Shown here piece by piece: positions 5,616 to 33,142 of a DNA stretch of 64,000 bases. The notes under the pieces are model-generated. The model made no database searches and was not told the DNA's origin. It was given only the letters and a program-made list of their open reading frames with translations. How positions within the stretch are numbered: the stretch's first letter is position 1; every line of letters begins with the position of its first letter. Source of the stretch: a phage. Position numbers and translations under genes: made by a program. The stretch lies in the NCBI GenBank assembly GCA_024682255.1, contig GCA_024682255.1_4716.1. The stretch is one strand, 5' to 3'.

Positions 5616-5647
5616 CCCTCCTCCAACCCAACAGGGAAGGAGGAGGG
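5616..5647. terminator. bidirectional hairpin terminator (CCCTCCTCC / GGAGGAGGG stem)
   Basis: Perfect 9-bp GC-rich stem with 14-nt loop containing an inner CCC/GGG mini-stem, between convergent genes ending at 5594 and 5657. Confidence 0.6.
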
Positions 5648-5656
5648 AATATGCTG

Positions 5657-8600
5657 TTATCTTACGTTATTGCTATTCTGCTGTTCGCTGAACCAACCAT
5701 ACACCTTGAGATCGGTACCGTATTTCAATGCGATATACGCATTCAGCGCAGCACAGAACAAAGACGCGAATGCCCATATCAGCGAAGGATCAACATCTTC
5801 CGTTACCACCTGGAGAGTATTATCCGGTTCCCATGATGGAGAACTGTCCATGAACGTTGCGTACCATCCCCGCCGTTGTTCTTCGGTGGTAAAGTCGCTA
5901 TGAGGTTCCAACGCTTCTTTTGCCAGACGTCGATATTCGAACATATGCGTTGCTAAAGCCGATGAGTTACCAGATTCGCCTTCATAGTTCGGATCCACCG
6001 CATAACAGAGTTCTGTTGAATCTAACAAAGCAACCGCCTGTGTGATGCTGTCGGCAGTACCTGCACCATAGAGCTCGATAGACCGCGAAAGCTTTTCACA
6101 GAACGTATTTAACGCGGCAGGATTGGACACCTGAAGGTCAAGGCCTAATGTCCACGGATAGTTACTGAACACACCCGTGAACCGCGGCATAACACCCAAC
6201 AGATGCTGACCGATTACGGCACGGTTATAAACAGCCCGGTTATAGACTTGAAACGCAGCCTCCAAGGCTTGGTTATAATGACGACGAAGTTCATCACGTG
6301 AGTTGCGGAATCTGTTTGCCGCAAGACTCGTGGCTGCGACGCTACAAACATCGTAATTGGTGGACGAAAGCACAACCTCGTTAAGATCGAACGCTTCCTG
6401 TTTCAATGTTCCGCTAACAGCCGCCGCTTCGCTGTTCGCTTTATCGACAACAGTACTCAAGGCGTTGATGTAACGTTTAGCTCGGACTTCCAGCCACTGT
6501 GCGATGCCGAGAATATCCACCGCAGCTTTAGCAAGATCGCGTGCATTCACGATTTCGTTCTTCAACGCCCCTAAACCTTTATTCTCAGGCGAAGAGGCTT
6601 GTTGGCGAATCATGCTGTTCAACATGGTAAGCAGATTATCCAACTCATGTCCACTGACCTTGTTACGCGCATCGGTAATCGGCCCTTGCAGGAATTTACG
6701 GCAACCGTCGTTGTATCGAATCAGTTTATCCACATCGATAGATTCGTTCGTGGATTCCTTGAACTGATCCTTCAATTCTTCACGGTAGTCGTGGATTTCA
6801 CTTGCGAGATTGTCGATAGTGATACCATCATGTCCAAGAAGAACTTTATCGAAGTTACCTTTCTCGAATGCCAGAGCAAGACCTTCACGAATCTTAGCGA
6901 GTTTATCTTGATCGAGTTCACGCCCGTTCGATAGCTCTTTCACTTCCGAACTGATTAGTGCCGCAACGTTACCCAGATTGTCGGTAACGCCTTTGAACGC
7001 TCCCGACCAGATCGTTCCTGCTTCAGCGTATTTCGCAATGGTCTGAATACCGACGGTGTGCAACGACGCTAAACGTTTCTTCGTGCCTTCGGTAAGCAGA
7101 GCGTCTTTAGCTCGTGTAAGCTGACTGTTATTGGCTTCCGCCTGCTGAATCGCTGCTTTCGCACTTCCATTACGCCAGCTCTTAACCAGCCAATCGACCA
7201 AACGTTTTAGAATGTTGACGGTGTATTCCATCGTCCGCCGTAACGTTTCCCACGCGCTTTCTGCGGTATAGATGCCGTACCCTTCCATCTTCAACGCTTT
7301 CAAGCTTGTTTGACGTGCCAACCATTCTACCGTTGCAGAACAAACGTTTACTAATGCTTCTAGGTAGTTGTAATAGACGTCTGTTGCAGCCGTTTCGTTG
7401 AGCTTTGAATGCAGATAAAACTGATCGTAAAGTTCGTCGTCATCGCCGAAGGCATCGTAGTTCCACAGCTCAGTATCGCAGCCTGTGCCGCAGAAGACGT
7501 CTGCTGTTGTAAACTCTTTAAGCGCTTTAGCCGCATCATTCGTCAGGAATTTACCTGTTTCAACTACATCATCGACGTTAAGCTTGGGGAGTTCATCGGT
7601 AACTGGCTCTTGCAACATTAACGTGTTGAAGAATGCGCTGTACTTGTATCCGAGCCATTTTGGATAACTGCTTTCAGGTATCGTAGACAACGGCTTGATT
7701 TTCTTGGCTTCAGCCAGCGTGTCTTTTGCAACCTGATATTGGTTTTCCCCAGCCTTGATGCGTCGTAACGCTTTTTCTTCCAACTGCTGGAGTTTGGCAT
7801 GCCGTGCTTGTGCTGGAGCTTCAACGAGTTTTTGTACCGACTGCATTGCTGAAATCGCTTCTTTTAATACGATCATCGGCATACGAACTTTGCCGTCGTC
7901 AAAACTAAGAGCACGAGCGACACGCTTACTTACGACAGGTTTGTCGTGGATATTTCGTTCCACCCACGATTTGTTTGCGTAAGTTTGAGCGATTTGCTGT
8001 TGGATATTTTCAAGGTATTTCCAGCTTTTGGATGCCTTGCTATCCAAAAGCGGATTCGGTCCCTTCTTATCGAAAAGTTTCAGAATCGGATCAAAGAAAC
8101 CTTCCTGTACAAGATCGATACGTGTATATCCGTCAGCCGCTTCGATTTCTTCTTGGGTTTTATCCCAAAGCTCTTCGCTACGGATAGCAGTAGCGGTTTC
8201 AGATACCGACATAACAAGCTCAGCAACAGCTTCAGCGTAAGTCAGTACGGTACGCACACATTGCACTAACATGCGCTGGTAAACGATACGTGCGTTTTGC
8301 AGACGTGCGATAACCGCTAAATATCCGATGTTGTCAAGATTTTCATCGGCTTGAGCGGATTCAACGCGTTCTAACAGTTGTTTAACTAGCGCCGCTGTTT
8401 CTGGGTAATCGTTCACGACGTCACGCATGATTCGTGATGCGAAAACCGCGGTACCTAAAACGGTGAGAAGTGTTTTACCGTCCCATTCTTTCGGTGCTGC
8501 TACCGATTCAGTAGGGATGAGATTTCCCGCTTGGTCGAAGTACGGCATAAGGACATTGATATCAGTCGACGGAACAGCAGTAACTGCGTTGTACTCTTCA

Positions 8601-9262
8601 TCCGCGCCATCGTTGCCAGACGGCTGTAAAGCAAGTGCTTGCTCAAGGATTTTGCGGTCAACGGCATAAAGCGCCGACAGAGCTTGCGTTACCGCAACCA
8701 GATCAACAATCGGTGACCAGAGCTGTGCGAGCTTACCTTCGTATTTCTGTACAGCGATAGCAAGGTCTTCTTTTACGTCTGGATGATCGATCAAACCACC
8801 CAACGTTTCATGGATGGCAGAAAAACGTTCAGAATGTGCCTGAGTCAATGCGGTAAAATCGTCAACGTAAGACGCATTTTCTTCAAGGCGTGTAAGTTCC
8901 TGCTCCAGAAGATCTTTTACCTGCGTGGTAGAGGCGTTTCTCAACTGTTCCCCGATAATCGCGATGGCTTTATCGACAACACGGCAGGCTTCATTGAAAC
9001 CGGTTGTTGAAGGTAACTCGGTCCATAATGCCAGCGGCTTACCTTCCATTGCGTCAGGAAGGGAATATGACAGCATTGTTAGTTGTTGACGTGATACCTG
9101 TTTGTCACGATGCAATGTTTCTTTCAACGCCAGAAGCTCATCAAGACCCACACTGCTAGGGATCGTGGGATGTGATACAGCGTTGATATTTTCTGTCAAT
9201 GACTCAAGAACCAATAAACCATTTTCAGCGGAAGATAACCCTGCTTTAAGGTATTTGTTCAT
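5657..9262 (-). CDS. giant alpha-helical hypothetical protein (1201 aa), likely virion internal/structural
   Basis: Long ORF, ATG start with GGAG 6 nt upstream; A/L/E/K-rich composition suggesting extended helices. Confidence 0.65.
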   Translation of the reverse strand: MNKYLKAGLSSAENGLLVLESLTENINAVSHPTIPSSVGLDELLALKETLHRDKQVSRQQLTMLSYSLPDAMEGKPLALWTELPSTTGFNEACRVVDKAIAIIGEQLRNASTTQVKDLLEQELTRLEENASYVDDFTALTQAHSERFSAIHETLGGLIDHPDVKEDLAIAVQKYEGKLAQLWSPIVDLVAVTQALSALYAVDRKILEQALALQPSGNDGADEEYNAVTAVPSTDINVLMPYFDQAGNLIPTESVAAPKEWDGKTLLTVLGTAVFASRIMRDVVNDYPETAALVKQLLERVESAQADENLDNIGYLAVIARLQNARIVYQRMLVQCVRTVLTYAEAVAELVMSVSETATAIRSEELWDKTQEEIEAADGYTRIDLVQEGFFDPILKLFDKKGPNPLLDSKASKSWKYLENIQQQIAQTYANKSWVERNIHDKPVVSKRVARALSFDDGKVRMPMIVLKEAISAMQSVQKLVEAPAQARHAKLQQLEEKALRRIKAGENQYQVAKDTLAEAKKIKPLSTIPESSYPKWLGYKYSAFFNTLMLQEPVTDELPKLNVDDVVETGKFLTNDAAKALKEFTTADVFCGTGCDTELWNYDAFGDDDELYDQFYLHSKLNETAATDVYYNYLEALVNVCSATVEWLARQTSLKALKMEGYGIYTAESAWETLRRTMEYTVNILKRLVDWLVKSWRNGSAKAAIQQAEANNSQLTRAKDALLTEGTKKRLASLHTVGIQTIAKYAEAGTIWSGAFKGVTDNLGNVAALISSEVKELSNGRELDQDKLAKIREGLALAFEKGNFDKVLLGHDGITIDNLASEIHDYREELKDQFKESTNESIDVDKLIRYNDGCRKFLQGPITDARNKVSGHELDNLLTMLNSMIRQQASSPENKGLGALKNEIVNARDLAKAAVDILGIAQWLEVRAKRYINALSTVVDKANSEAAAVSGTLKQEAFDLNEVVLSSTNYDVCSVAATSLAANRFRNSRDELRRHYNQALEAAFQVYNRAVYNRAVIGQHLLGVMPRFTGVFSNYPWTLGLDLQVSNPAALNTFCEKLSRSIELYGAGTADSITQAVALLDSTELCYAVDPNYEGESGNSSALATHMFEYRRLAKEALEPHSDFTTEEQRRGWYATFMDSSPSWEPDNTLQVVTEDVDPSLIWAFASLFCAALNAYIALKYGTDLKVYGWFSEQQNSNNVR

Positions 9263-9277
9263 AAAACACTCCGTTGA

Positions 9278-9308
9278 CCTAGGTGGAGGTTATTGGCCTC
9301 CACCTAGG
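9278..9308 (-). promoter_or_regulatory. perfect 12-bp stem hairpin immediately upstream of the 1201-aa gene
   Basis: CCTAGGTGGAGG ... CCTCCACCTAGG with 7-nt loop, ending about 15 nt before the start codon at 9262; possible terminator/attenuator or processing site between two co-oriented giant genes. Confidence 0.5.
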
Positions 9309-9343
9309 GTTGAACAACGCGTACGGTTATACGGTACGCACGA

Positions 9344-12139
9344 TTACGCTAATTTACCGAAACCGGCTTTCTGTAGTTTCTCGTTGATCAGTTTTGCTTC
9401 CGCGAAAACATAATCACGATACGCAGTCACTAACCCGTCCACCCGTGAGCGCAAGGCTTCTTCGAAGCTATACCACGCAGCGATTTCACGAATCTGTGCG
9501 TTGATATAATCAACGGTTGAGCGAAGCTCGGTTGCGTTTTCTTGCGGGATGGCTTTCACCTGGCGAGCAACGTCATTTAAACGACGGAACTGTGTTTCGA
9601 TTTCTTTAAACTTACTGTCCGCAAGTTTGCTGAATTCGTCACCGGAACGGGTGAATAACAGATAGCTGTTGCCGTCAAGTGCGGTTGCTAACTGCTGAAG
9701 TACGTTGGTGTCCGGATACACAGGAGTACCGCTTTGCAGTACTTTCTCACCGAATTCCGCGAAGTCCTTCGGTGGTAAGTGTGCAGACGTTGTCAACTCG
9801 TTGAAACGGAAAGTCAGCGAATTATCATACAGCATCCGGTACGCTTCCATACCCTGTTTCATGGTACCGGCCAGGTTAGCCAGACGCGGAGCAATCTCGC
9901 CTTCTTTAGCGCGTTTCTGGTCTTCTAACGCCCCTTCGAGTTCTTTACACTGGTCGTTCAGATACACGATACGATCGGGACGCAGACGACGCATCTCACG
10001 AAGAATAGTATCCAGCTTACCTTCCTGGAAATAACCTAACGTTAAAGACGTACACGCTTGCTGAAGACGATCGAACACCGGTAAGGTCACCATCTCCTTA
10101 CGGATACCATCAACAATCGCAGAAACAGCCGAAAGTTTCTGTTCTGTCGTTAATGGAACATCAGAGACCGACTTGCTGGGCGCACCAACAACGTTACGCA
10201 TTGCGTCGGTATCCTCGGTTTTATCAACCTCTTTACGAACATGCTCATCAGGAACATAAACGTTCGCGTTACGTTTCGCCTGCTTGATGGCGTCGTTGGC
10301 CGCTTTTTCGGTGGCCGCTACGCTATCGGCACGTTTCTTCAAGAGTTCAATAATCCAGAGCAACAGACGACGAATCGCTGTATAGGCGGTCGTGATGATG
10401 ACACCGATAACAGCCATCTTCATGATACCGAACGATTCCATGGTCGGCTCTAACGCCTGGTCCGGCATATACCGTTCACGCAGCTCCAGATAGATCTGCT
10501 CATCTGGTTTGCTGACCTCACCACGATGTGAAGTCCGATAGATGGCTTCGTCAATCTCAACAAGATCTTTGCGTGCCTGGCGATCGGATTCTGTTAAGTA
10601 AGCACAACCGGATACGTCGTCTTCGAAGCTTAAGAATTTGAAAAAGTCGCTGACATCGACGTTGACCTTCTTCGCTTCATTGTCAACGTTAATGAAATCC
10701 GTTTTACGAGACTGCTGTTGAATCTTAATATCCTTTATCGGTTTAAGCGCTTTGTCTTTTAATGCCTGCATGATCTGTTTCCAGCTGGCATCGCGTTCAA
10801 GAACAAGGAAATAGTTCTTGAGTTCGAATGCGCGATAGCGGGCAACAAGTTGTTCTACCTGAACATGAGCGAGTTGTACGTCCATCAGCCAACGCGACAT
10901 TGCCGAGATCAAACGGCTATAAGCAAGCAGCGTCTGATACGTCAGCTTCATGTGTTTCTCGTACAGCTCAATATCGCCGTCTTGAATATCAGCCGTTGGG
11001 TTCATTTCCTTCGTTGCTTTGAAGATTTGTTCGGCTTCATTTAACGTTTGTTCGAATTTGACTTCATTAAACGTGTCAAACGGTTCGGCCAACTCTACCA
11101 TTCGATCGTGAAGTTCACGAACCCAGGCTTCTTTATTGTTGCGAATAGCTGCGTCATCGTGAAGTTCAGTTTGATGTTTCTGTACCCATTCTTCGACGAT
11201 ATCAGCGGCGGCAACAATTCCTGTACCATCGGAAACTAACGGAACAACTCCAGCAAGTACGCCTACACATGCTGGGGTTTTCCAATAATCGTTCAAAGCG
11301 TTTCTGAATTCAACGATGGATTGTACGTTTGGTACTGTGTCCAAAAACGTACTGCCGTTACGGCTCATTGTCGTTACGATATCAGCGAATTCCTTCTGCT
11401 TAGCGGTAACAAAAGGAACCAGGACCATAAGCCATTCAGCAACCGATTTCGCTTTTTCTTTCAGGTTCTTGTCAGCGATTTCTTTAAGGTTTATCGCACC
11501 ACCGTAACCTGCAAGCTCTTTATATACGTCGCTAAGGGTCATCTGTTTATCCAACATTTCTTTGAAACGTGGATAATCAGCACCTAACGCATCGATAATA
11601 TCGTTGATTACGTCATCGGTTGTTGCAATAAACTTCTTCGTATCAACGTTTGAATATTTCCAGACGTACCGTACGGCTTTCTTGATTCCCGCAAAGATAA
11701 ACGCCCAAATACGCTTGATGAGTTCCCAGACTTTCTTCGCACCGTCGACAAACAGTTTAGAGACCTTGGCAACGAATCCTTCCTGTACCAACTCAACGCC
11801 GTTCCGTGATGGGATTTCGGTGAAGAAAGCATCTGGCAGTTGTTTCGGGAATGCGTCACCAAGACGCATACGCAGTTCCGGTACATCAGCACGAGAAATG
11901 CCGCGTGTTACTAACTGTTCGTGAAGACGAACGTTTTCTTCGCCAGAGGTCACGAATTCGTCAACATCGAAGGAGACCATTGCTTCCTGATCTTCGGTGG
12001 TAACGACGCTTGAACCGTCGCTGGTTTGGATGTCCTCGTCAGGGAACGCCATGAGCATACCGTGACGCATTTCAACCACTCCGTAATCGGTTGCTAAACC
12101 GAATTCGTTGTGATCGGGGGTAATAACCGGGATACTCAT
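9344..12139 (-). CDS. large hypothetical protein (931 aa) with one internal hydrophobic segment
   Basis: Long ORF; ATG overlaps the TGA of the upstream gene (ATGA); hydrophobic stretch MKMAVIGVIITTAYTAIRRLLLWII. Confidence 0.65.
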   Translation of the reverse strand: MSIPVITPDHNEFGLATDYGVVEMRHGMLMAFPDEDIQTSDGSSVVTTEDQEAMVSFDVDEFVTSGEENVRLHEQLVTRGISRADVPELRMRLGDAFPKQLPDAFFTEIPSRNGVELVQEGFVAKVSKLFVDGAKKVWELIKRIWAFIFAGIKKAVRYVWKYSNVDTKKFIATTDDVINDIIDALGADYPRFKEMLDKQMTLSDVYKELAGYGGAINLKEIADKNLKEKAKSVAEWLMVLVPFVTAKQKEFADIVTTMSRNGSTFLDTVPNVQSIVEFRNALNDYWKTPACVGVLAGVVPLVSDGTGIVAAADIVEEWVQKHQTELHDDAAIRNNKEAWVRELHDRMVELAEPFDTFNEVKFEQTLNEAEQIFKATKEMNPTADIQDGDIELYEKHMKLTYQTLLAYSRLISAMSRWLMDVQLAHVQVEQLVARYRAFELKNYFLVLERDASWKQIMQALKDKALKPIKDIKIQQQSRKTDFINVDNEAKKVNVDVSDFFKFLSFEDDVSGCAYLTESDRQARKDLVEIDEAIYRTSHRGEVSKPDEQIYLELRERYMPDQALEPTMESFGIMKMAVIGVIITTAYTAIRRLLLWIIELLKKRADSVAATEKAANDAIKQAKRNANVYVPDEHVRKEVDKTEDTDAMRNVVGAPSKSVSDVPLTTEQKLSAVSAIVDGIRKEMVTLPVFDRLQQACTSLTLGYFQEGKLDTILREMRRLRPDRIVYLNDQCKELEGALEDQKRAKEGEIAPRLANLAGTMKQGMEAYRMLYDNSLTFRFNELTTSAHLPPKDFAEFGEKVLQSGTPVYPDTNVLQQLATALDGNSYLLFTRSGDEFSKLADSKFKEIETQFRRLNDVARQVKAIPQENATELRSTVDYINAQIREIAAWYSFEEALRSRVDGLVTAYRDYVFAEAKLINEKLQKAGFGKLA

Positions 12140-12576
12140 GCATTCTCTCCTTGCAGTGCGTTAGCGAAAGCTGTTGCAAGTTGTGCGACCAGTTTCGGGT
12201 CAACGCCTTCGATAACGTCAGGCAGCCCTGCGGTTTCTTGGTCACGAACAGCGGAGGCTAATAACAGCATGGTTTCAGGTGCAGTTGGCTCATGCACCAT
12301 GCGGTAACGCAGGCACCAGAAGTAGCGAGCAACGTCTAACGCATCAGCTAACCCGATAACCAGTACCTTGTTCAGCTTATCCAGCCCTTCACGGATTTTA
12401 GGGAGATGTTCGCGAACGAAAATGCTATCTGCGGTCAGATCTTCTTTTTCAGCGAATACGGGCATGCTGTAACCAGCAATGTAACCAGCGGCAATACTTA
12501 ACGCACGGGTCTGTTGTTCGGCCGGGAAATCACGAACCAGGTCTTTCAGCTGAACGGCGAAATCAGAAATATTCAT
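12136..12576 (-). CDS. hypothetical protein (146 aa)
   Basis: ORF with ATG and AAGGA upstream; stop overlaps start of next gene. Confidence 0.55.
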   Translation of the reverse strand: MNISDFAVQLKDLVRDFPAEQQTRALSIAAGYIAGYSMPVFAEKEDLTADSIFVREHLPKIREGLDKLNKVLVIGLADALDVARYFWCLRYRMVHEPTAPETMLLLASAVRDQETAGLPDVIEGVDPKLVAQLATAFANALQGENA

Positions 12577-12608
12577 GTTAAATTCCTTTATAGTAAAAAT
12601 AGAAGAGA

Positions 12609-13919
12609 TTAGGCGATAATGGAATCAAGAGTCGCTGCGGTTTTGAACAGATCGCTGTTCATTGTAGAAGAAAGGGCTTGCTGAATTTCTTCCTGTTTAA
12701 CCGCCTTACGAACCCCAGGACGAAGGGCGATAGTCACCATTTGCATGAACGTACGGTTGTTGTTCATTTCTTTCAGTGTATCATCGATTGTTTTAATCGT
12801 GTCTAGCGTAGTTGAACGGATATCGTTAGGGAGATCGCGATCTTTCAGGCGTATAATCAGATCCTGTTTGATCTTACGGAATCGTTCCATATCGTTATCG
12901 TAAATGTTGTATGTTGGATCTAACCAAACTGCAAGCGCCATAGCGGCAACAAATATTGCCATACCGAGAATATTAACCGAGGTGAAGCTGATTGCAATCA
13001 GAATAGCCACGGCGGCATCTTTAATGAAGGAGAGCCAGAACATCGTTTTGGACTTCATGGAGTCTTTGCTATAATACCGATACATTTTAGCAAGCCCGCT
13101 AACGAGATACTCCCCACCACCATGACGTGTAGCGAACTGATCAGCCATGAATTCGGAAGCAACGTCGGTATATCGTCCAGCGTTGTTTACATTTCGTAAT
13201 TGCATCGCTTTGTTAGATACGTAAACCGTGTACCAGACACTACCATCGTCTGAATCACTGATTTTGTCTACGTCGACGTTGGTATCCAGCGTTTTGTTTA
13301 ACGCTTTCGCCAGTTCGATACGTTTTACCTTATCGGTTGTCCCCAACAGTTCACGCTGCACGGTCATGATTGAGGCTTCGACACGAACCGTTTCCGACAA
13401 TGTTTCGAGGAAAGTAAACGCATGACCGATTTCATGCAGCATTATGGCCGCTTTTTCTTCCGGAAGAAAGGGTTCTGTCGCTGCTAGCAGTTCATACGTG
13501 ATGGCAGAACGAATCTTCAACTCCTCAAAGATACCGTAAACACGACCTTTTTCTAAATCGACGTAACCGACAGGCGTATCTTTAATCTTCTTAAGGAGCG
13601 TAACACCATCAGCACCACGCATCCATAACCGATGATAGTCTGCCAAGATCGTGTTGTTTGTCGAAATATCCGGCGGGTACACGTAGGCATTCATCTGGCC
13701 CATTTTCACGTCGACCGAGAATTCGATGTTCAACCCCGTATAGCGTTTAACCATCTCGGTTAAACGACCGTCCTTGAAAACGTTTAAAACATCTTTTTTA
13801 TCCAGTCCCTGTTTGCTTCTGAAGAACTCGGTCATTTCCTTGAACAAGGAACCATCCTGAAACTTGATGGCTTCCATCGTTAATTCGTCATGACCATACA
13901 CGCGTTGTAGTAATGACAT
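12609..13919 (-). CDS. putative zinc metallopeptidase-like membrane protein (436 aa, HEIGH motif)
   Basis: HExxH motif (IMLHEIGHAFTFLE) with downstream Glu, followed by a long C-terminal hydrophobic segment (FWLSFIKDAAVAILIAISFTSVNILGMAIFVAAMALAVWL). Confidence 0.55.
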   Translation of the reverse strand: MSLLQRVYGHDELTMEAIKFQDGSLFKEMTEFFRSKQGLDKKDVLNVFKDGRLTEMVKRYTGLNIEFSVDVKMGQMNAYVYPPDISTNNTILADYHRLWMRGADGVTLLKKIKDTPVGYVDLEKGRVYGIFEELKIRSAITYELLAATEPFLPEEKAAIMLHEIGHAFTFLETLSETVRVEASIMTVQRELLGTTDKVKRIELAKALNKTLDTNVDVDKISDSDDGSVWYTVYVSNKAMQLRNVNNAGRYTDVASEFMADQFATRHGGGEYLVSGLAKMYRYYSKDSMKSKTMFWLSFIKDAAVAILIAISFTSVNILGMAIFVAAMALAVWLDPTYNIYDNDMERFRKIKQDLIIRLKDRDLPNDIRSTTLDTIKTIDDTLKEMNNNRTFMQMVTIALRPGVRKAVKQEEIQQALSSTMNSDLFKTAATLDSIIA

Positions 13920-13931
13920 TGTACACTCTCT

Positions 13932-13947
13932 AAATTTACGTAAATTT
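13932..13947. promoter_or_regulatory. perfect 16-bp palindrome AAATTTACGTAAATTT in divergent intergenic region
   Basis: Self-complementary 16-mer about 13 nt upstream of the start of the HExxH gene, in the 220-bp divergent region between 13919 and 14141. Confidence 0.4.
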
Positions 13948-14140
13948 AAGGGCTAATGGATCGGCTGGCCGCACCAATCACAATGTGTCCGCTGCTATGC
14001 AACGGCATTCATAGAAATACCTTTTGACGGTAACATCACCCATCACACCCCAAGCAATAAGAGTGGTCGGTTAAAAACAACAGAACGTGGGGATGATATA
14101 GAAAATCACCTTTTAACACTTATTACGAGTTTATCAAGCC

Positions 14141-15640: not shown

Positions 15641-15707
15641 GAAATAAATCGGTTAAGTTTTACCTCCTTTCTCGATAAGTATGATACTAAGCGAGCAAGG
15701 AGTTGAT

Positions 15708-17476: not shown

Positions 17477-17508
17477 CCCCTCCCCCTGGCGGAAGCCGGA
17501 GGGAGGGG
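17477..17508 (-). terminator. hairpin terminator (CCCCTCCC / GGGAGGGG) with T-run on minus strand
   Basis: GC-rich stem followed on the minus strand by TTTTTTGTT; immediately after the gene ending at 17515. Confidence 0.55.
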
Positions 17509-18542: not shown

Positions 18543-18573
18543 CCCTTCCCCGGCCTTGACGGCTAGGGAAGGG
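18543..18573 (-). terminator. hairpin (CCCTTCCC / GGGAAGGG)
   Basis: 8-bp GC stem between genes 18589..18984 and 18071..18511; no strong T-run. Confidence 0.4.
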
Positions 18574-21364: not shown

Positions 21365-21504
21365 TTGTCTTAAATAGATGATAAGATATTTTGCTCTTAT
21401 CACTAAGGTAACGCTTACGCGTCGCGTTCATGATGCATGGCATCATGAAGGTAATGTAGTCGTGAAATAAACTGCGTTAACACGAAATAAAAAACAGCAT
21501 AGAA

Positions 21505-21536
21505 CCCTCTCCCAACCCGTAAGGGAAGGGAGAGGG
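21505..21536 (-). terminator. two-tier hairpin terminator, exact 32-nt copy of 28673..28704
   Basis: ccctctccc-aacccgtaagggaa-gggagaggg; followed on minus strand by a T-run (TGTTTTTTATTT). Confidence 0.65.
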
Positions 21537-22417: not shown

Positions 22418-22471
22418 GGAGTGCTTGTCCTATTTTTATTTTCTGCACAGGATAAATTCAACGGCATAAAG

Positions 22472-22503
22472 CCCTTCCCTGCCCTTATATGGGGCGGGAA
22501 GAG
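22472..22503 (-). terminator. imperfect hairpin (CCCTTCCCTGCCC / GGGGCGGGAAGAG)
   Basis: GC-rich bulged stem downstream of the gene ending at 22632. Confidence 0.35.
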
Positions 22504-23258: not shown

Positions 23259-23283
23259 GTTTATTTCCTTTTGTTTAACAAGG

Positions 23284-24585: not shown

Positions 24586-24598
24586 GTAACAACTCCTT

Positions 24599-25471: not shown

Positions 25472-25567
25472 ATCCACTCCGATGCGGTAAATGTCTACTA
25501 GCTCTCATAATCTATTGAAGAAACTACCAGCTTACGCCAACTTAGATTAATCAGGAGTAACCATCCC

Positions 25568-26041
25568 ATGCCAGTTTCATCCAAACCAAGAAAAAAATCC
25601 GTAGGAAACCCTAAAGCTCAGGAAACAACAGCAATTCGTTGGGACGAGTTACGTGAACCTATCGAAAACTGCGAATTGTTATTAGGTACCCTGGGTGCGG
25701 CTATTTACCAAGCGACGCAGCCCTGTCGTTTACGATTAACCCAAAACAAACGTGATGAGTTCGTTGCGTTATCAACAAGCACGAATAAAGATCTGACCGA
25801 ACTTCAAACCGAATTGACGACGATCAAGAACTCCATTACGCCGATGTACGGTAAAGAAGTTGATGAACAAAGTATTCTGTTACAGTACAACTACGGGATG
25901 TCGTTAATGAACATCCTGGAACGCGCATCCGATATTCTGCGTCCTGACGTTGCACGCCTGAGCCAACTGCGTGTTGAAGGGATGGAGAACCAGATCCGAT
26001 TCGCTAACAGCGTTAAATCTCAAGGAGCCACCGAAGCATGA
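25568..26041 (+). CDS. hypothetical protein (157 aa)
   Basis: ATG with AGGAG upstream; stop overlaps next start (ATGA). Confidence 0.6.
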   Translation: MPVSSKPRKKSVGNPKAQETTAIRWDELREPIENCELLLGTLGAAIYQATQPCRLRLTQNKRDEFVALSTSTNKDLTELQTELTTIKNSITPMYGKEVDEQSILLQYNYGMSLMNILERASDILRPDVARLSQLRVEGMENQIRFANSVKSQGATEA

Positions 26042-27723
26042 GCGAACAAGAAAAAGAAGTCGTGACGAATCAGGAAGCCGTTGAGCGTTCAGAGTCGTCT
26101 GTTGAAACAACGATTCCGGCAAGTTCCGAGCCTGTTGGTTCCGTACAGCAGGAAAGTAAAGACGAAGTCAACACTACTAAAGAAGATGTAGTGGCTCCAG
26201 AAGCAACCCGTGAAGAAGAACCGTCACATCCACCGCTAATCGATTTCTCGAAGGCGACGATACGTTTCCAATGCGAAGACATTCGTCCTAAGAGTCCGAA
26301 GAAAACAAAACGTCAGCCGTTGGTGTTACCGTTATATTCTCCGCGTGTGCAGACAACGTATTACCGGGAATACATCAACGAAGCAATGGATACCGTGCAA
26401 GCCATTGTCGCTCAACGCGGTAAACCGACAGACGAACAGTTTGATAAATTCAGTAAAGCGGTGGTGCAATCGGTTGCTGATGGACAATATCATCCGCGTG
26501 GTCCAGCTCACGATCGCGCGTTGGAACGTAAAGGCAGTCAGTGGACTAACGTACCCGTAGACTCATCGGGTGTTGGTCGCGTTATTCCTGGCATTCCGCA
26601 ACCGAACCATATTCCTGATGATGTCGAAGCGCCGCTGACAGGAACCGATGCGATCTATTTTGCTATCCGTAATACGAAATCAGGCGCACCTGCGGTAATG
26701 CCGTTATGGCATAGCGGTATTAAGCTGCAGTTCAATCCGCCGTCAAATGAACGTGTTGCAATTATGCACGAACGTATTGCACGCGATAAAATCCTGGGTG
26801 GTCGTGATAGCACCGGTTTCCTGTTTTCGGCAACCTCGATTATCACCATGAAGCACGCAATCGAATTAGCGTTAGAATGCTGTTACATGGCCAACGTACC
26901 GAACCTGGATATCCAGCGTTTGAAAGACATTATTCCGGTTACCGATGTTCCGGCGTTGTTGTTGAACGTGCTGGTAACCATGTATCCGTACGGGTATCCT
27001 TACGTACAGACCTGCTATCAGAATCCAGAAACCTGCGACTATCGTGTCGAAGATACCGTAAGCTTTGCGAAGCTCTATCAAGTTGACAACAGCGCAATTA
27101 CCAAACGTATGCGACAGATCATGACCGAAGGTCCGGTCATGACAGATGAACTTTTGCGTGAGTATGCGAACGAGCTGGGTGAAACGAACTCCCGTACGCT
27201 GGATCTGTCCGACAACGGTTCTGTTATCATTGAACTCGAAGTACCGAAGATCTCACGACAAATCGCCATGGGTGAACGTTGGTTAAGCGATACGCTGGAA
27301 GATCTGCGTGATATTCTATCGCGTCCGTCGATGACCGAAGAAGAGCGTGATCGTGTTATTCGTGAACGTCAGTTCTATAGCTGGATGCGTCAGTATGATG
27401 CGTGGATCAAATCGATGCATGTGTCGGTAAACGGTACCATGCGTCGTGTAAGCGATGCAGATACGGCAACGGTATTAGCACAGCTGTCTCGTGACAGCGA
27501 CCTTCGTGAACGCTATATCGATGGGCTGATGCAATTCATCGGTGATTCGACGATTGCGCTCGCAGCGATGCCTGCCTGGAAATGTCCGAAATGTAATGCC
27601 GATATTGCTGACAATCTGCGTGACCAGAAATACTACGATCTGATTGCTTTGGATGTACCCCAGCTTTTTTTTACCCTAAACTCCGTCCAATCTCTTCAGG
27701 AGGGGATGGACGCGGTATTCTAA
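26038..27723 (+). CDS. hypothetical protein (561 aa)
   Basis: Long ORF coupled to the upstream gene; C-terminal WKCPKCNA may be a zinc-ribbon-like element. Confidence 0.6.
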   Translation: MSEQEKEVVTNQEAVERSESSVETTIPASSEPVGSVQQESKDEVNTTKEDVVAPEATREEEPSHPPLIDFSKATIRFQCEDIRPKSPKKTKRQPLVLPLYSPRVQTTYYREYINEAMDTVQAIVAQRGKPTDEQFDKFSKAVVQSVADGQYHPRGPAHDRALERKGSQWTNVPVDSSGVGRVIPGIPQPNHIPDDVEAPLTGTDAIYFAIRNTKSGAPAVMPLWHSGIKLQFNPPSNERVAIMHERIARDKILGGRDSTGFLFSATSIITMKHAIELALECCYMANVPNLDIQRLKDIIPVTDVPALLLNVLVTMYPYGYPYVQTCYQNPETCDYRVEDTVSFAKLYQVDNSAITKRMRQIMTEGPVMTDELLREYANELGETNSRTLDLSDNGSVIIELEVPKISRQIAMGERWLSDTLEDLRDILSRPSMTEEERDRVIRERQFYSWMRQYDAWIKSMHVSVNGTMRRVSDADTATVLAQLSRDSDLRERYIDGLMQFIGDSTIALAAMPAWKCPKCNADIADNLRDQKYYDLIALDVPQLFFTLNSVQSLQEGMDAVF

Positions 27724-27815
27724 TCGATCCGCGATACGGGTTACATGACGGACAACTTGTTCGTAATGATGAAAAAATCTGGGAATTGCTGTTAGCGCGT
27801 AAAGGCGATGGTGGC

Positions 27816-28145
27816 ATGAAACTGAACATCGAAATGGGTATAGCGTACGATACCATGTTTGGTTTGTACGACCGCGTTAACGAATGGACACCGTTGAAAT
27901 GGGTGGCTCAGCATCCCGCTGAAGATCCCTGGGACAGATTAGGGATTAAACCCTTAATCGAGGATTATGTTCGATTCGGTATTAAAGAGTTCATGACGCT
28001 GGATGCGTTTTTAAAAGCACCGTATCCTTACGCGCAAACGGTACTCAAAATCGCACAAGACGAACTGCGGAAACGTAGTGCGGTACTGGACGACGATGAG
28101 GACAAGTTACGACGAGAAGAAGAACGTTTACGAAACGGAAAATAA
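27816..28145 (+). CDS. small hypothetical protein (~109 aa)
   Basis: Track frame starts at a TTG at 27786; first ATG at 27816; start uncertain. Confidence 0.45.
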   Translation: MKLNIEMGIAYDTMFGLYDRVNEWTPLKWVAQHPAEDPWDRLGIKPLIEDYVRFGIKEFMTLDAFLKAPYPYAQTVLKIAQDELRKRSAVLDDDEDKLRREEERLRNGK

Positions 28146-28146
28146 A

Positions 28147-28656
28147 ATGGCGAGATTTACCAGTTTGATTGGGTTGGATATTTGGGAAACACCGGCTGAC
28201 GTTCGGGTTATTCCTGTTAACACCGTCGGTGTGATGGGACGTGGTCTTGCTAAGCAGGCAGCCGATCGTGTGCCCGGTCTTCTTGAAGCGTACCGTAAGC
28301 AATGTCAAGATGGGTTTAAGGTGGGAGAAGTCGTGTCATATCAACACGGTGATAACGATCAACTCACTTACGTGCTGTTTCCATCAAAATCGGATTGGCG
28401 TGAAAGAACACGACGCGAGTATATCGTTAACGGTTTACTGGCGTTAAAAGCGTGGTTATTGGAGCTTCAGTTCGAAAGAGACGGCTTCTCATATCGGCGT
28501 CCGGCTGAACCGCTGATCGTTGCAATTCCTCCGGTTGGTTCTGGCTGCGGTAATATCGGCTACGGACAATCCGAAACAATCCAGCCTCAATGGGTACGCG
28601 CACAAATCAAACAGTATCTTGCCACCGTGCCAAACGTTCATTTCTACTTGTTCTAA
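28147..28656 (+). CDS. macro-domain-like (ADP-ribose-binding fold) protein, putative ADP-ribosyl hydrolase
   Basis: Two glycine-rich loops in macro-domain order and spacing: VIPVNTVGVMGRGLA and IVAIPPVGSGCGNIG; ATG one nt after the preceding TAA. Confidence 0.5.
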   Translation: MARFTSLIGLDIWETPADVRVIPVNTVGVMGRGLAKQAADRVPGLLEAYRKQCQDGFKVGEVVSYQHGDNDQLTYVLFPSKSDWRERTRREYIVNGLLALKAWLLELQFERDGFSYRRPAEPLIVAIPPVGSGCGNIGYGQSETIQPQWVRAQIKQYLATVPNVHFYLF

Positions 28657-28672
28657 TGTAAAGGTAACATAA

Positions 28673-28704
28673 CCCTCTCCCAACCCGTAAGGGAAGGGAG
28701 AGGG
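28673..28704. terminator. bidirectional two-tier hairpin, exact copy of 21505..21536
   Basis: Identical 32-nt ccctctcccaacccgtaagggaagggagaggg between convergent genes ending at 28656 and 28722. Confidence 0.6.
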
Positions 28705-28721
28705 CTTATGCTGTTATGCTG

Positions 28722-29096
28722 TTAATCTTCGTTCCAGATGGCATCTTCCGGTGGAACAATAGGATCTTTCTTCGGCATTGATGGCACTTCATGACGATGC
28801 TTACGGAACTGCCTATCAATAACCTCACGAAGCCGGTACGCATCAACCCATGTTGATTTATTGAACAGCTCCAACGTCACAGTTAGCCGTGTTCTCGACA
28901 TTGAATAGCTTTTCTTTGCAATCAAATTGGGATAATTCAGTTGAGCGAACCACGCACGTATTTGTGCTTCGGTAAAAGCGATGCTGTAATAACTAAGTTT
29001 ACCGTCATTAAAATCGTGCGCGTGGGTGTAGCGTCCAGCGTAACGCCAGACAAGATGCACATTCAGATCGATCCATGGTGGGGTGGTATCAGCCAT
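28722..29096 (-). CDS. hypothetical protein (124 aa)
   Basis: ATG with GAGGG upstream. Confidence 0.55.
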   Translation of the reverse strand: MADTTPPWIDLNVHLVWRYAGRYTHAHDFNDGKLSYYSIAFTEAQIRAWFAQLNYPNLIAKKSYSMSRTRLTVTLELFNKSTWVDAYRLREVIDRQFRKHRHEVPSMPKKDPIVPPEDAIWNED

Positions 29097-29105
29097 GTGT
29101 TACCC

Positions 29106-29675
29106 TCAACGATTCTTCATCACTTTACCTAGGCTTTCGATATTATCCCAAAAGCGATTTTTACTTGGCGCATCACCGACGATAACCGACATCAAATCAC
29201 GACGTTCACGACTGATGATGCCTTGTGATTTCCAGATCACCATCGTCCAGCAAGCTGCCAGAACGAACAGATGGTTAATGCTTGGTTTGGTTTGCGCAAT
29301 GAACGCAAGCCATGCCCAGATACCGGTGTATACTATCGTCACTAAAAAGAGCGAGATTGTTGCAACGACAACAACGAAGTTTTGGACAGCGGGTTGATTC
29401 GCGTTATCATGAATAGCGGTAAGATCAGGAAGGTTACCTTCAACTGAACTCGTTTCATCGATTTCCAATTCTTCGATTTCTTTTCGTGTGTCAGGAGCTA
29501 ATCCAGCATCATCGAGATGCTTTTTTAACCGCTGTATGCTTAATCGTTGACCGACAGGAATGTTGATGTTGTCGTAACTATTAAGCGCATCGACCAGGGA
29601 GCGTCCGTCAACGAGAACCAAGCTCGCGGTACCCATCGTTTGCGGTTTTATTTTGTAAAGGTCTTTTACTTTCAT
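29106..29675 (-). CDS. membrane protein (189 aa, multiple TM segments)
   Basis: ATG with GGAGGT upstream; hydrophobic segments VVVVATISLFLVTIVYTGIWAWLAFI and LFVLAACWTMVIW. Confidence 0.55.
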   Translation of the reverse strand: MKVKDLYKIKPQTMGTASLVLVDGRSLVDALNSYDNINIPVGQRLSIQRLKKHLDDAGLAPDTRKEIEELEIDETSSVEGNLPDLTAIHDNANQPAVQNFVVVVATISLFLVTIVYTGIWAWLAFIAQTKPSINHLFVLAACWTMVIWKSQGIISRERRDLMSVIVGDAPSKNRFWDNIESLGKVMKNR

Positions 29676-29696
29676 GTAGACACCACCTCCAACGTG

Positions 29697-32309
29697 TTAA
29701 GCGTCCGGCGTAAAATCAAAAGGAATGTCCGTACGAATGATATCATAACGTTTTCCGAGGAAATAGAACTCTTCGGGAACCTGGCCTGGAATGATGCTAT
29801 CACCGATGAACTGCGGATACGCCCAGATGTACTGGGTGAGTCCTTCGAACATATCCAGGTTATTTGCGTGGTTGCCCATGATACGTTTCCAGAGTTCGCG
29901 TTTATACGGCGTTTTAACATCGAACCCATAAAGCGGTGCGAGGTCTTCACCAGGAACAAATCCCAGGTAATAGTGGATCTGACTAACTGGGAAACCAAGG
30001 GTATCTCGCGGAATGGTGATCGCTTGCTCAGCCTTGGTGACATGCGTCTCAATAATCCAGTCATAGCACTCTGAATAGAACCGATCGAATTTCTCTGGAT
30101 TATACCACGCTTTGGGAAGATTGAGTTTCTCCGTGAACGCGTTCGACATGATCGTCGGCAAGAACGGAAGAACGCCGGTTTTGATCTGCGTGTATTTCGA
30201 TTTTACCCGGTTAACGAGATTCCAGCAACTGTATCCTAACTGTTCGTTACAAAACTCAACATAGAGATCGTAGTCACCACCGGATAACGGGTTGTTAATA
30301 TCACCGATGTCTGCGGCGTATTTGTTGGGATATCGGTTATTGAAAGCCAGTTTGGTTTGGTAGTCGTAGATACACGGTTTGTTGTTCGCTGTATTGATCC
30401 ACCACCAGGGTTCACCTACTTGTACACAAATGTCCTGGACATGAGGGTAAATGATATCAGCAAACGCGGTTAACACATCCCCTAACCACGTCATCGCCTG
30501 TTGGTTACATGGAGACAACAACCAAGACGGTGGCGTATATCCGGTTGCTGCGATGTTTCCTTCCCAATCCTGCTGCGCCCACTCGAACGGGCATGCGGTA
30601 CTCATCAATTCGTAACTTAAACTGATGGTGACGGAGAAATGGTGTTTTGCAGCATATGCGGCGAAAGCTTCATGCCACGCGATACAGGCCGGATTTAATA
30701 CATCCGTGGTGTTCACCAGTAACTTACCCGCACTTGGCGTCCAGACAGTATCGTAGAAATGCGACATCCCAACATAATGCACTAATTCATCTTGATACCC
30801 CGCATAAACCAGGTTCTCAAATACGCGCTCCGGCGTGATGTTGTAATGGTCATCATAAGCGGTTATCGCACGAAGTTCGTGTGGCGTACAGTGGTGGCGA
30901 CTAACCGTCATTTCCTGATACACCCCATCGATAGGAAGAATCTCGATGGTTAAACCGAGGTCGATTGGCGTTTCCAGATAGGTCGTTTCAGTCGCATCTT
31001 CCTTATAATGTCGAGAACTCATGCTGAACATCAACGACGTTACCGATTCGAGTTCGATGGGTTCGTCAGCATAGAACCCCGCCATTGCGTCATTGAAATC
31101 GATCGTCACGATTGCGCTTCTACCGTCTTCAGAGACATCGGTCGCATATCGGGTTAATGAGATATACTGACGGCTATCGTCTTTGTGTACGACGGTTAAA
31201 ACCGGCGGGTGTTCGGTATCTGCAAAGTTACGCTGATCGCCAGTAAACGTGACCTTCGCTTTAAAGATCAAACCGAGTAACGATGTCATGGGATCATACG
31301 CAATACATCCGTGATCCAGCGTATCCGTTGTCCGCCATTCTATCCCGACCAACCCGTTAGCGGTATGACATCGCATATACGCATTAAGTGTCATGTCCTC
31401 ACTGACAACCGCGAAGTTCTCTGTTGACTGACCGTTGATAATCCAATACATCGGTTGCCAGAGGTTACGCGTACCTTTTGCGTAGCGGTAGGTTGGTGCG
31501 CCTTTGGGGTTGCCATTATTAAGATGGAATACGGCAGTACCTTGATAATGGTCGTTCGTATTAATCGGAACACTGTAAGCATCGCCGAGGTCCGTACGTT
31601 CCACCTTCGTGACTGTCGCGTTTTCAAATAACCCACGTAGCGCGGGTAAACCGATATCTTCCGGCGCGTTTTCTCGACGAATCGCATCCGCGATGCGGTG
31701 GGCTAAGGCGGGGTAAATGACCTCACCCTGTTGTAGGTTTGCAAGACCTACAAAGCGATCGGGAGCGATACCAGCAATCAATAACTCGACATCACCCTTC
31801 GTTCTATCGTCGTTAAGATATTTCAGTCCGGTAAGGTCAAGATGCTGAATAAGCGACAACAGGTTGTATTTACGGTTTTCAACAGTTAGTACAAGATCGC
31901 CCGCCCAAACCAAACTTCCCTCATCCGCTGTTACTTTAACGGATTGTCGGCCCGTGGTAGACGTTGTTGTCGTTTTATTTAATTGTCCTTGTAGGAAGTC
32001 GGTTGCGAGGTCAAAGGCGATACCGTAACGGTCAGCGACCGCTTGCATGATTTCACGTAACTGGGTATCTTCTTCAATGATAATCTTGACAGGTATTCCC
32101 AAGAACGCTTTAGCGAGGTCTCGTTTAACCAACGAGACGAATACGGATTTGTAGTATCGGCTTCCATCTTTCCCTTTAAAAAGAATGGAGGTTGTTTCGG
32201 GTGCCGATAGAACACGTGCAAATACAACATCGTCGGAAGTAAGAGAAAGTCCGTTTTTCTCGTTGACCAATCTTAGTATTTCATTTTGCGCGGTTTCATG
32301 TAACTTCAT
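29697..32309 (-). CDS. tailspike / tail-fibre-like protein (870 aa) with N-terminal anchor domain
   Basis: N-terminal region (RDLAKAFLGIPVKIIIEE ... DRYGIAFDLATDF) is paralogous to the short proteins at 38096..38623 and 42439..43269; long Trp/Tyr-rich C-terminal domain. Confidence 0.55.
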   Translation of the reverse strand: MKLHETAQNEILRLVNEKNGLSLTSDDVVFARVLSAPETTSILFKGKDGSRYYKSVFVSLVKRDLAKAFLGIPVKIIIEEDTQLREIMQAVADRYGIAFDLATDFLQGQLNKTTTTSTTGRQSVKVTADEGSLVWAGDLVLTVENRKYNLLSLIQHLDLTGLKYLNDDRTKGDVELLIAGIAPDRFVGLANLQQGEVIYPALAHRIADAIRRENAPEDIGLPALRGLFENATVTKVERTDLGDAYSVPINTNDHYQGTAVFHLNNGNPKGAPTYRYAKGTRNLWQPMYWIINGQSTENFAVVSEDMTLNAYMRCHTANGLVGIEWRTTDTLDHGCIAYDPMTSLLGLIFKAKVTFTGDQRNFADTEHPPVLTVVHKDDSRQYISLTRYATDVSEDGRSAIVTIDFNDAMAGFYADEPIELESVTSLMFSMSSRHYKEDATETTYLETPIDLGLTIEILPIDGVYQEMTVSRHHCTPHELRAITAYDDHYNITPERVFENLVYAGYQDELVHYVGMSHFYDTVWTPSAGKLLVNTTDVLNPACIAWHEAFAAYAAKHHFSVTISLSYELMSTACPFEWAQQDWEGNIAATGYTPPSWLLSPCNQQAMTWLGDVLTAFADIIYPHVQDICVQVGEPWWWINTANNKPCIYDYQTKLAFNNRYPNKYAADIGDINNPLSGGDYDLYVEFCNEQLGYSCWNLVNRVKSKYTQIKTGVLPFLPTIMSNAFTEKLNLPKAWYNPEKFDRFYSECYDWIIETHVTKAEQAITIPRDTLGFPVSQIHYYLGFVPGEDLAPLYGFDVKTPYKRELWKRIMGNHANNLDMFEGLTQYIWAYPQFIGDSIIPGQVPEEFYFLGKRYDIIRTDIPFDFTPDA

Positions 32310-32331
32310 TAAAAACCTCAGCCCTTTAGAA

Positions 32332-32973
32332 TTAGATGTACTGCTTACCGCCCACGAAGGAAGTTAACCAGTTCCCGCTGACGAGTTGTGATACCCAGCC
32401 TGGAACGGCTCTACCATTCTGGCTCATGATGTTACCACACCAACCAGGGAATCCGGGACGGATGTAATAGAAAGTTAAATTGTAGAGATGACAGTTCCAT
32501 ACCGCAACGTTATGTTTACCAGAAACCGCTTTAAAGACAAACGCGACAGGTAACGGAGACGATAACAATTCGGTCACAGGGACAGCTGACCAGTTCGCAT
32601 TCGCGTTCCATGGTTGCCAGGTATGACTACGCGAGTCGCAATATACGTTACCGTTGCTACCGCGTCCGCCCGCGTTCCACCATAGCGACGGACTCATGTT
32701 TTTAAGTGAGGTAAATTGCTGTGGTGGTATATTCGGAATGATAACAGGGTTGGTACCTTGTCCGTGTTTCTTTTCTTTTGTGTTCACATAGCCGTTTATC
32801 GATTCGAGGTATTTCGTACCAGGATAATTGTTCTGGACTTGTGTCGCAATATCACGAACGTCGAACGTCCAGCAGATCATGGTGTTATAGTAAGCGTCGG
32901 TGTTATCGTGCCATGAGTTACCATCTTGTAAACGTGCGCCGCTATTCGGTGTTTTATCTGTACTTATAGCCAT
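32332..32973 (-). CDS. Trp-rich hypothetical protein (213 aa), receptor-binding module
   Basis: ATG with AGGA upstream; located between the lipoprotein gene and the 870-aa tailspike-like gene. Confidence 0.55.
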   Translation of the reverse strand: MAISTDKTPNSGARLQDGNSWHDNTDAYYNTMICWTFDVRDIATQVQNNYPGTKYLESINGYVNTKEKKHGQGTNPVIIPNIPPQQFTSLKNMSPSLWWNAGGRGSNGNVYCDSRSHTWQPWNANANWSAVPVTELLSSPLPVAFVFKAVSGKHNVAVWNCHLYNLTFYYIRPGFPGWCGNIMSQNGRAVPGWVSQLVSGNWLTSFVGGKQYI

Positions 32974-33112
32974 GGTCTTGTCCTATACGTTGGTGGTTGA
33001 AGTGGCGGATATCGGATGCATGCTGGACGTGAACCCTATAGTTCGCGCTATCGCCATTTTCTACCTCGTTTCTATTCTCAAAAAGGAAATTTCATACGAT
33101 GACGCCATAGCA

Positions 33113-33142
33113 GCTCCTCCTTCCCTGACGGGTTGGAGGAGC
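33113..33142 (-). terminator. two-tier hairpin of the same family in opposite orientation
   Basis: GCTCCTCC-ttccctgacgggtt-GGAGGAGC; loop is the reverse complement form of the aaccc-N4-gggaa loop seen at 5616, 21505 and 28673. Confidence 0.5.

Follow-up and report, generated by a model that had tools for sequence, protein, structure and literature searches.

Two-tier hairpins at gene ends of a Goslar-like jumbo phage: a probable variant of the phiKZ-type intrinsic terminator

In a 64,000-nucleotide stretch of phage DNA (NCBI GenBank assembly GCA_024682255.1, contig GCA_024682255.1_4716.1; hereafter the window), four hairpins built of two stacked stems lie between genes at 5616, 21505, 28673 and 33113, the last on the minus strand, at the sites where a sequence-only reading had placed them. 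These hairpins are very probably intrinsic terminators of a Goslar-like chimallivirus, of the same class as the terminator of phages phiKZ and 201phi2-1. They constitute a lineage-specific, partly homogenised two-tier variant of that published class and are often bidirectional. By its sequence, the window is a close relative of Escherichia phage vB_EcoM_Goslar, a nucleus-forming jumbo phage (Goslarvirus; chimallivirus): Goslar was the sole megablast match to positions 20000-30000, with 95.4% identity over 95% of the query. The GenBank record of Goslar labels the orthologue of the hairpin at 28673-28704 'putative transcriptional terminator, -15.69', and further family members carry the same putative-terminator label there.

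The four hairpins share a single anatomy. A pyrimidine/purine outer stem of 9 bp (8 bp once) is followed by a 2x2 internal loop of AA/AA (or UU/UU), a CCC/GGG inner stem and a tetraloop. The core AACCC-N4-GGGAA is located at 5625-5638, 21514-21527 and 28682-28695 on the plus strand and at 33121-33134 on the minus strand; four matches in the window compare with 0.07 expected, and none of 100 shuffled sequences gave four. All four are predicted to adopt the two-tier fold on both strands; computed with their flanks, the folding free energies (dG) range from -24 to -34 kcal/mol and the z-scores from -4.2 to -6.8.

Two of the copies separate convergent genes. The hairpin at 5616..5647, CCCTCCTCC-AA-CCC-AACA-GGG-AA-GGAGGAGGG, stands between genes 2601-5594 (+) and 5657-9262 (-) and reaches, with flanks, -31 kcal/mol on the plus strand and -34 kcal/mol on the minus strand. 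The copy at 28673..28704 lies between gene 28096-28656 (+), which encodes a macro domain, and gene 28722-29096 (-). At both sites GCATA/TATGC flanks are able to form an extra basal stem, which at 5616 (GCATA, 5610-5614; TATGC, 5650-5654) becomes a third tier. Each of these two hairpins is likely a bidirectional terminator. The remaining copies follow minus-strand genes. The one at 21505..21536, which sequence comparison confirms to be the same 32-mer as that at 28673-28704, begins 13 nt past the stop codon of gene 21550-22005 (-); because its context is tandem, the minus-strand transcript has the UU/UUAC form. The copy at 33113..33142, 8 nt past the stop codon of 33151-33657 (-), reads GCTCCTCC-AA-CCC-GTCA-GGG-AA-GGAGGAGC on the minus strand, and GCTCCTCC/GGAGGAGC is the 8-bp outer stem.

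The position of these elements and the sequence that follows them point to a terminator. At least 11 gene-end hairpins in the window form the wider family (5616, 17477, 18543, 21505, 22474, 28673, 33113, 38737, 45687, 52549 and ~58669). When the sites are oriented by their neighbouring genes, all 11 stand 3-60 nt past a stop codon, and ten of them, all but 17477, carry (T)TATG(C)(Y)G(T) 0-7 nt further along the transcript. At the convergent sites 5616 and 28673 the motif is found on both sides, as CATAA-hairpin-NNTATG. Its extended form, TATGCTGTT, has six copies in the window versus 0.38 expected, five of which adjoin family hairpins. For plus-strand transcripts it occupies 5650..5658 (+), where the mirror CATA at 5611-5614 reads TTATGCTCAT on the minus strand. 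At 21493..21501 (-) it lies 3 nt past the hairpin in the direction of transcription and is followed by TTTTTATTTCG, and at 28707..28723 (+) two overlapping tandem elements come after the hairpin, with CATA 28668-28671 as the mirror TTATGTTAC on the minus strand. The 33113 hairpin runs on into TGCTATGGCGT on the minus strand, with TATG at 33109..33106.

These features closely match a known class. In phiKZ, ONT-cappable-seq (Putzeys et al. 2024, PMC10914365) revealed the motif 5'-BCCYCCCCHWWDGGGRRGGBYTTATKYYGT-3' at 61 predicted intrinsic terminators, some of them bidirectional and located between convergent genes. The same motif (motif A, n=59) is found in 201phi2-1, for which eight terminators were validated in a terminator trap (PMC11512511). 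In the phiKZ DNA itself, the major head gene is followed by GCCCTCCC-TTCG-GGGAGGGC tttatgttgt, and other hairpins read aacagcataaa-TCCCCTCC... and GGGAGCC...GGCTCCC ttttatgctgtt. Like them, the Goslar-type hairpins combine a 5' arm rich in C/pyrimidine with a 3' arm rich in G/purine (e.g. CCCTCCTCC/GGAGGAGGG and CCCTCTCCC/GGGAGAGGG). As in phiKZ and 201phi2-1, (T)TTATG(C/T)(C/T)GT follows, the elements are intergenic just past genes and bidirectional at convergent genes, and the phage is of the nucleus-forming kind with two multisubunit RNA polymerases (RNAPs) of its own: the window is Goslarvirus-related, and a homologue of the RNAP subunit gp123 is present in Goslar and in 273 phage records.

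The resemblance extends to the sequence itself. The 3' half of the phiKZ consensus, GGBYTTATKYYGT, has 13 matches in the window with at most one mismatch, compared with 3.1 expected, and the exact matches include 22461, 28702 and 45677. Of all 4-mers in the 10 nt that follow strong hairpins, TATG shows the highest enrichment, 10.7x in the window, 10.8x in Goslar and 11-12x in phiKZ, and it leads in five other chimalliviruses as well. Two differences are evident. The base after TTAT is nearly always G in Goslar-like genomes, as opposed to K (G or T) in phiKZ. Unlike the simple 7-9 bp stem and HWWD tetraloop of phiKZ, the four copies here have two tiers, a stability greater by about 10 kcal/mol and sequences that are nearly the same in all four. 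As a consequence of the two-tier form, they are shape variants and no literal consensus matches; the hairpin at 45687-45711 roughly fits the simple form. A canonical Rho-independent terminator likewise places a GC-rich hairpin past the stop codon and in some cases works in two directions, but here the conserved tract TATGCYGT takes the place of the stem-adjacent U-run.

The distribution of hairpins across the Goslar genome, reassembled whole from six pieces with open reading frames (ORFs) called by a rough greedy procedure, follows the direction of transcription. Hairpins with dG <= -12 are found at 14 of 20 convergent and 43 of 107 tandem(-) junctions but at just 2 of 24 divergent ones, and the combination of hairpin and TATG occurs at 12 of the 20 convergent junctions and at none of the 24 divergent ones. 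In tandem arrangements TATG lies only downstream in 18 cases, only upstream in 2 and on both sides in 5 (p=4e-4), against a background chance of 0.018 that a given 12 nt contain TATG. Goslar holds 15 real copies of the AA-CCC-type two-tier hairpin, which are over-represented at convergent junctions (8/20 versus 5/115 tandem; Fisher p=4.7e-5), suggesting that the extra-stable form serves preferentially as a two-way stop. Nearly all the remaining convergent junctions of Goslar have some different large two-tier C/G hairpin.

Covariation, which the sequence-only reading had proposed as a check, was evaluated in an alignment of 43 different copies of the two-tier form. Their sources are the window, Goslar, two Goslar-like genomes from IMG/VR and a handful of further viral contigs, among them two distant chimallivirus relatives. 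Base pairing is observed in 98.3% of cells, versus 50-64% in slid controls, a percentage inflated by the choice of copies with >=7/9 pairs and by their mutual relatedness. Double-sided changes affect seven of the nine outer pairs (61 cells); one-sided changes are absent, and hence there is no G-U pair in any of the 43 copies. The compensatory swaps themselves (CCCTCCTCC, CCCTCTCCC, CATCCTCCC, CCTTCCTCC, CACTTACCC, ACTCTACCC) are no selection artefact. With about eight independent stem types, the lack of G-U is suggestive of a hairpin that folds in transcripts of both strands, or in DNA. The hairpin family is real, non-random and under selection; what the DNA shows directly is its anatomy, its placement and orientation, its covariation and its identity in sequence with the phiKZ motif.

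The sequence-only reading had also taken the exact conservation of both loop and stem as a sign of protein recognition, or of a function as a processing or terminator element. The argument for protein recognition does not survive comparison of flank-matched copies in four Goslar-like genomes, in which the tetraloop is the most variable part (0.32 differences per site), followed by the flanks (0.11) and the outer stem (0.04, all compensatory), while the AA-CCC/GGG-AA module does not differ at all (0). The terminator half of the proposal has good support from position, orientation and identity with the mapped phiKZ-like terminators. Tetraloops are drawn from GTAA, AACA, ATCA, GTCA, GTGA and AGCA and always end in A. 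The variant ATCA appears at three non-orthologous sites in one genome, and whole stem variants are swapped between genomes at orthologous sites. The pattern looks like concerted evolution by copy-to-copy conversion, and such homogenisation explains the two identical 32-mers better than protein recognition does. The invariant inner module could nevertheless be a recognition feature.

Beyond the Goslar clade, the exact inner module is present, among the matches listed, solely in contigs L119 and L059, whose proteins are 26-32% identical to Goslar capsid-region proteins. A similar design, TA-CCCC-GCAA-GGGG-TA, follows the major head gene of phage RSL2 and is also found in EL. Most non-Goslar matches listed in the scan of viral contigs for the pattern are marine-phage hairpins or chance matches inside genes. 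Marine IMG/VR contigs (L002, L004, L008-L010 and many more) carry CCCCCC-AA-CCC-NNNN-GGG-AA-GGGGGG with an A-run before it and a T-run after it on the opposite strand. These marine hairpins are a separate canonical terminator family of unrelated phages that converged on the two-tier shape.

From these features we infer how 3' ends would form at the hairpins in this phage, which polymerase would be involved and what role the TATG tract would play. A phage multisubunit RNAP, virion or non-virion, would read beyond the stop codon, and the emerging RNA would form a highly stable hairpin, rich in C/U along its 5' arm and in G/A along its 3' arm. Release of the transcript would then occur within the adjacent (U)UAUGCYGU tract, a substitute for the usual U-run. 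At convergent pairs the symmetric CATAA-hairpin-NNTATG arrangement would halt transcription from either side. Repeated copying or gene conversion among terminators, together with selection for strict Watson-Crick pairing on both strands, may account for the near-identity of the copies. Phages of Pseudomonas and of E. coli, with proteins only 24-30% identical, share the motif, which suggests that the signal is likely read by the phage polymerases themselves.

Several points weigh against the assignment as terminators. The literature searched holds no transcript 3'-end data for Goslar or for this phage, and the sole mention of a terminator in the Goslar cryo-EM preprint is a 'tail terminator' protein. 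In phiKZ, the 3' ends mapped by ONT-cappable-seq could, taken alone, reflect either true termination or trimming by an exonuclease that halts at a hairpin. The shape differs from the simple stem and 4-nt loop of phiKZ, and the four two-tier copies have no U-run directly after the stem. The canonical Rho-independent tract (>=5 T within 8 nt, 0-2 nt past the stem) is absent, with flanks reading AATATGCT, AATATTAA / TTCTATGC, CTTATGCT and TGCTATGG. A scan of positions 1-20000 with the consensus terminator left the 5616 hairpin, the only two-tier copy there, unlisted. Finally, AACCC..GGGAA lies on the plus strand in 13 of the 15 Goslar copies (p=0.007), whatever the local direction of transcription; termination alone does not account for this one-strand bias of an asymmetric loop or for the invariant inner module.

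In phiKZ, TATG is the core of the late promoters of the non-virion RNAP (nvRNAP), with G as +1, and the hairpins could therefore combine a terminator with a late promoter, transcription stopping at the hairpin and nvRNAP restarting at the adjacent TATG for the next gene. At tandem junctions the hairpin-adjacent TATG does lie 19 to ~170 nt upstream of the next start codon, and TATGC is enriched in tandem upstream regions (30 observed versus 10.2 expected). However, convergent junctions carry TATG on both sides, with no gene ahead on that strand, the extended motif TATGCTGTT is almost exclusively a neighbour of hairpins, and TATG alone is insufficient for promoter activity. Divergent junctions, where promoters must exist, are without the combination, and p119L, the best-studied late promoter, has no upstream hairpin, making this dual role unlikely. 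A promoter in which the phage RNAP recognises a DNA hairpin, as in phage N4, is highly improbable: the hairpins adjoin a known promoter core and the promoter determinants of jumbo-phage RNAPs are incompletely understood, yet the hairpins stand 3-60 nt past stop codons and on both sides of convergent pairs. The positional data, the empty divergent junctions among them, essentially refute this N4-type reading, and on the junction counts and the hairpin-free p119L the hairpin was rejected as part of a promoter. A small-ORF reading was also rejected. The 3' arm GGAGGAGGG with the ATG after it resembles a Shine-Dalgarno sequence and start codon, but the reading frames that would follow lack conservation and in several copies run for just 2-6 codons, and the Shine-Dalgarno-like arm is sequestered in the stem.

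Two further explanations leave termination aside. RNAPs might read through and the hairpin protect or process the RNA 3' end, blocking 3'-5' exonucleases or guiding an endonuclease cut in the AU-rich TTATG tract. Great stability (-22 to -34 kcal/mol), the missing U-run and 3'-end mapping in relatives that is blind to trimming all suit such an element, which is nonetheless quite improbable: eight 201phi2-1 elements of the same kind terminate in vivo in a two-reporter trap (PMC11512511), and the same flank is kept in phages of Pseudomonas, E. coli, Erwinia, Ralstonia and Klebsiella/Serratia, pointing to a conserved phage polymerase and not to host RNases. A slightly smaller probability attaches to a DNA-level repeat, a small palindromic unit similar to repetitive extragenic palindromes (REP) or miniature inverted-repeat transposable elements (MITE), or a recombination module, that spreads and shuffles gene cassettes with only secondary effects on transcription. 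Copies that are near-identical and homogenised within genomes, zero G-U pairs and an orientation bias toward one genome strand would fit it, as would three local rearrangements described below (an indel boundary at 21505, a recurrent unit at Goslar 49716 and an inverted loop at 45687). Still, target-site duplications and terminal repeats beyond the hairpin are lacking, placement is strictly at gene 3' ends, with hardly any copies at divergent junctions or within coding sequence, the TATG flank is polarised along the direction of transcription, and bidirectional RNA function explains strict pairing on both strands equally well.

The terminators also act as recombination-prone module borders, a behaviour taken as a by-product because placement and polarity follow transcription. 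For instance, the 21505 copy lies exactly at the edge of a 502-bp segment, 21514-22015, which contains gene 21550-22005 and is absent from Goslar, with the breakpoint inside the terminator hairpin. The segment is also present in two IMG/VR Goslar-like genomes; at that site Goslar retains the flank aaacagcatagaa with a different and imperfect hairpin. The 151-aa product of the gene gave no Pfam match, one weak PHROG of unknown function and no sign of homing or mobility. A unit of ~100 nt, composed of hairpin, TATGCTGT and the promoter-like box TTCACGACTACATTAC, recurs elsewhere in Goslar-like genomes, e.g. at Goslar 49716. At 45697-45701 the loop CTTAC is the exact reverse complement of the loop GTAAG of the Goslar orthologue within identical stems; this is a small hairpin-mediated loop inversion.

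In T4-type phages, promoter-early stem-loop (PeSL) cassettes reportedly consist of repeated stem-loop terminators beside promoter boxes, at the borders of variable gene cassettes. The one junction inspected for this, where the 21505 copy and the box TTCACGACTACATTAC meet the 502-bp indel, would fit such a picture, with sequences unrelated to PeSL and a role in recombination that is at most putative. The box TTCACGRCTAYATTAC, found at 21451-21466 (-) and 49010-49025 (-) and also in divergent intergenic regions of Goslar (ttcacggctatattacttaagtga and similar), is probably an early (virion RNAP) promoter of the Goslar lineage. Both ends of the Goslar record (positions 1-50 and 237246-237307) fall inside a single hairpin copy, after which come ttatgccgtcaagc and an A-run of 17 nt; this suggests a short terminal duplication at a terminator.

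The wider family in the window includes looser relatives cited by the sequence-only reading, of which those at 18543-18573, 45687-45711 and 52549-52567 are genuine hairpins. At 18543..18573 (-), 15 nt past the stop codon of 18589-18984 (-), a two-tier hairpin has the outer stem CCCTTCCC/GGGAAGGG and the inner part GCCGTCAAGGC, followed by CTATATGTTGAC. It belongs to a second two-tier sub-family, in which the inner module TAGCCGTCAAGGCCGG is conserved within differing C/G-rich outer stems and which is also found at Goslar 11186, 84366 and 200229. The element at 45676..45711 (-), 14 nt past the stop codon of 45726-46223 (-), comprises a single-stem 10-bp hairpin (45687-45711), read on the minus strand as CCCTTCCTGC-GTAAG-GCAGGAAGGG, and TTTATGCTGTT. 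The one at 52539..52567 (-), 5 nt past the stop codon of 52573-53001 (-), consists of the 7-bp hairpin CCCTCCC-GGCAT-GGGAGGG (52549-52567) and CTTATGCCGA; it is the nearest in shape to phiKZ terminators, with a 7-bp stem but a 5-nt loop. A fourth relative, cited at 58690, is a real hairpin but an imperfect one, GTCCCTCCCATCATGGGCGGGCACGGGCG, spanning about 58669-58697 within an element at 58664..58697 (-) that comes after 58721-59341 (-) and is followed by TTATGCTGATG.

Three additional members, at 17477-17508, 22474-22501 and 38737-38768, had not been cited. The hairpin CTTCCC-GCCCC-ATATAA-GGGC-A-GGGAAG at 22474..22501 (-) lies between 22632-23258 (-) and 22016-22417 (-), and the GGCTTTATGCCGT after it matches the 3' half of the phiKZ terminator consensus exactly. 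A 13-bp hairpin, CCCCTCTATCTCG...CGAGATAGAGGGG, is located at 38737..38768 (-) downstream of 38829-42425 (-) and is followed by CAATATGCGCGG. The strong two-tier hairpin at 17477..17508, CCCCTCCC-CCTGGC-GGAA-GCCGGA-GGGAGGGG (dG -27.6), stands 6 nt past the stop codon of 17515-18000 (-). Its plus side runs on as tggggttTATG, downstream of a possible unannotated plus-strand exon; its minus side, facing the annotated gene, has a T-run and no TATG.

Other RNA-like features of the window stand outside this family. A search with Rfam RNA families (gathering score; E<=1 over 5000-34000) gave no match to the hairpins and found a group I intron alone (RF00028, 68.7 bits) at 16801-17126 (+). The intron directly follows an HNH/NUMOD1-type ORF, 15681-16814, which in turn follows the DNA_pol_B_exo-like gene 14141-15640. 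The Goslar record leaves the stretch 15681-17126 unannotated, and ~17130-17410 may be a downstream exon. ARAGORN found no tRNA. Canonical terminators with a hairpin and T-run are present at 20864-20881 (-) and 43354-43383 (-), and a strong intergenic hairpin at 9278-9308 (CCTAGGTGGAGG..., -24.6 kcal/mol) has neither TATG nor T-run and shows compensatory stem changes in Goslar.

The tract after the hairpins offers a lead on the polymerase. A pocket in gp123, the beta-like subunit, formed by F151, K158, H185, K190, H331, Y399 and Y406, binds TATG of the non-template strand. It is conceivable, if rather doubtful, that an elongating phage polymerase re-reads the non-template TATG as a pause or release signal in place of the U-tract, possibly coupled to re-initiation. 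If true, TATG would act as a terminator code specific to the polymerase. The TATG signal beside hairpins is strong in Goslar, phiKZ, phiLBG22, KpHz_2, KpZh_LPS_45, PhiEaH1 and RSL2, the last being the weakest of these, with TTTT slightly higher, and it is weak in an EL-like phage and pTD1. SPN3US-like phages (L134, Salmonella phage SPLA3; L129, SPN3US) lack it and have TTATT or T-runs instead. In an alignment of ten gp123 sequences, the SPN3US-like homologue alone lacks K158 and H/Y at 185, and it differs at three of the seven pocket positions. The Goslar homologue, gp39, retains F, K, Y(H), K, H and an aromatic residue at 406. As the alignments are at 16-30% identity and ten genomes were sampled, the idea is a lead and no finding. 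Hairpins of the outgroup AR9 are followed by T-runs and are uninformative on the promoter-core idea.

Goslar is the E. coli model for nucleus-forming phages, and its transcription units are unmapped. The present hairpins confirm a published element class in a new relative and are in other respects an ordinary finding. The terminator grammar that they exhibit, a hairpin followed by TATGCYGT and two-sided at convergent genes, would allow operons to be drawn from sequence alone. The same elements are compact candidate bidirectional terminators for engineering with phage RNAPs.

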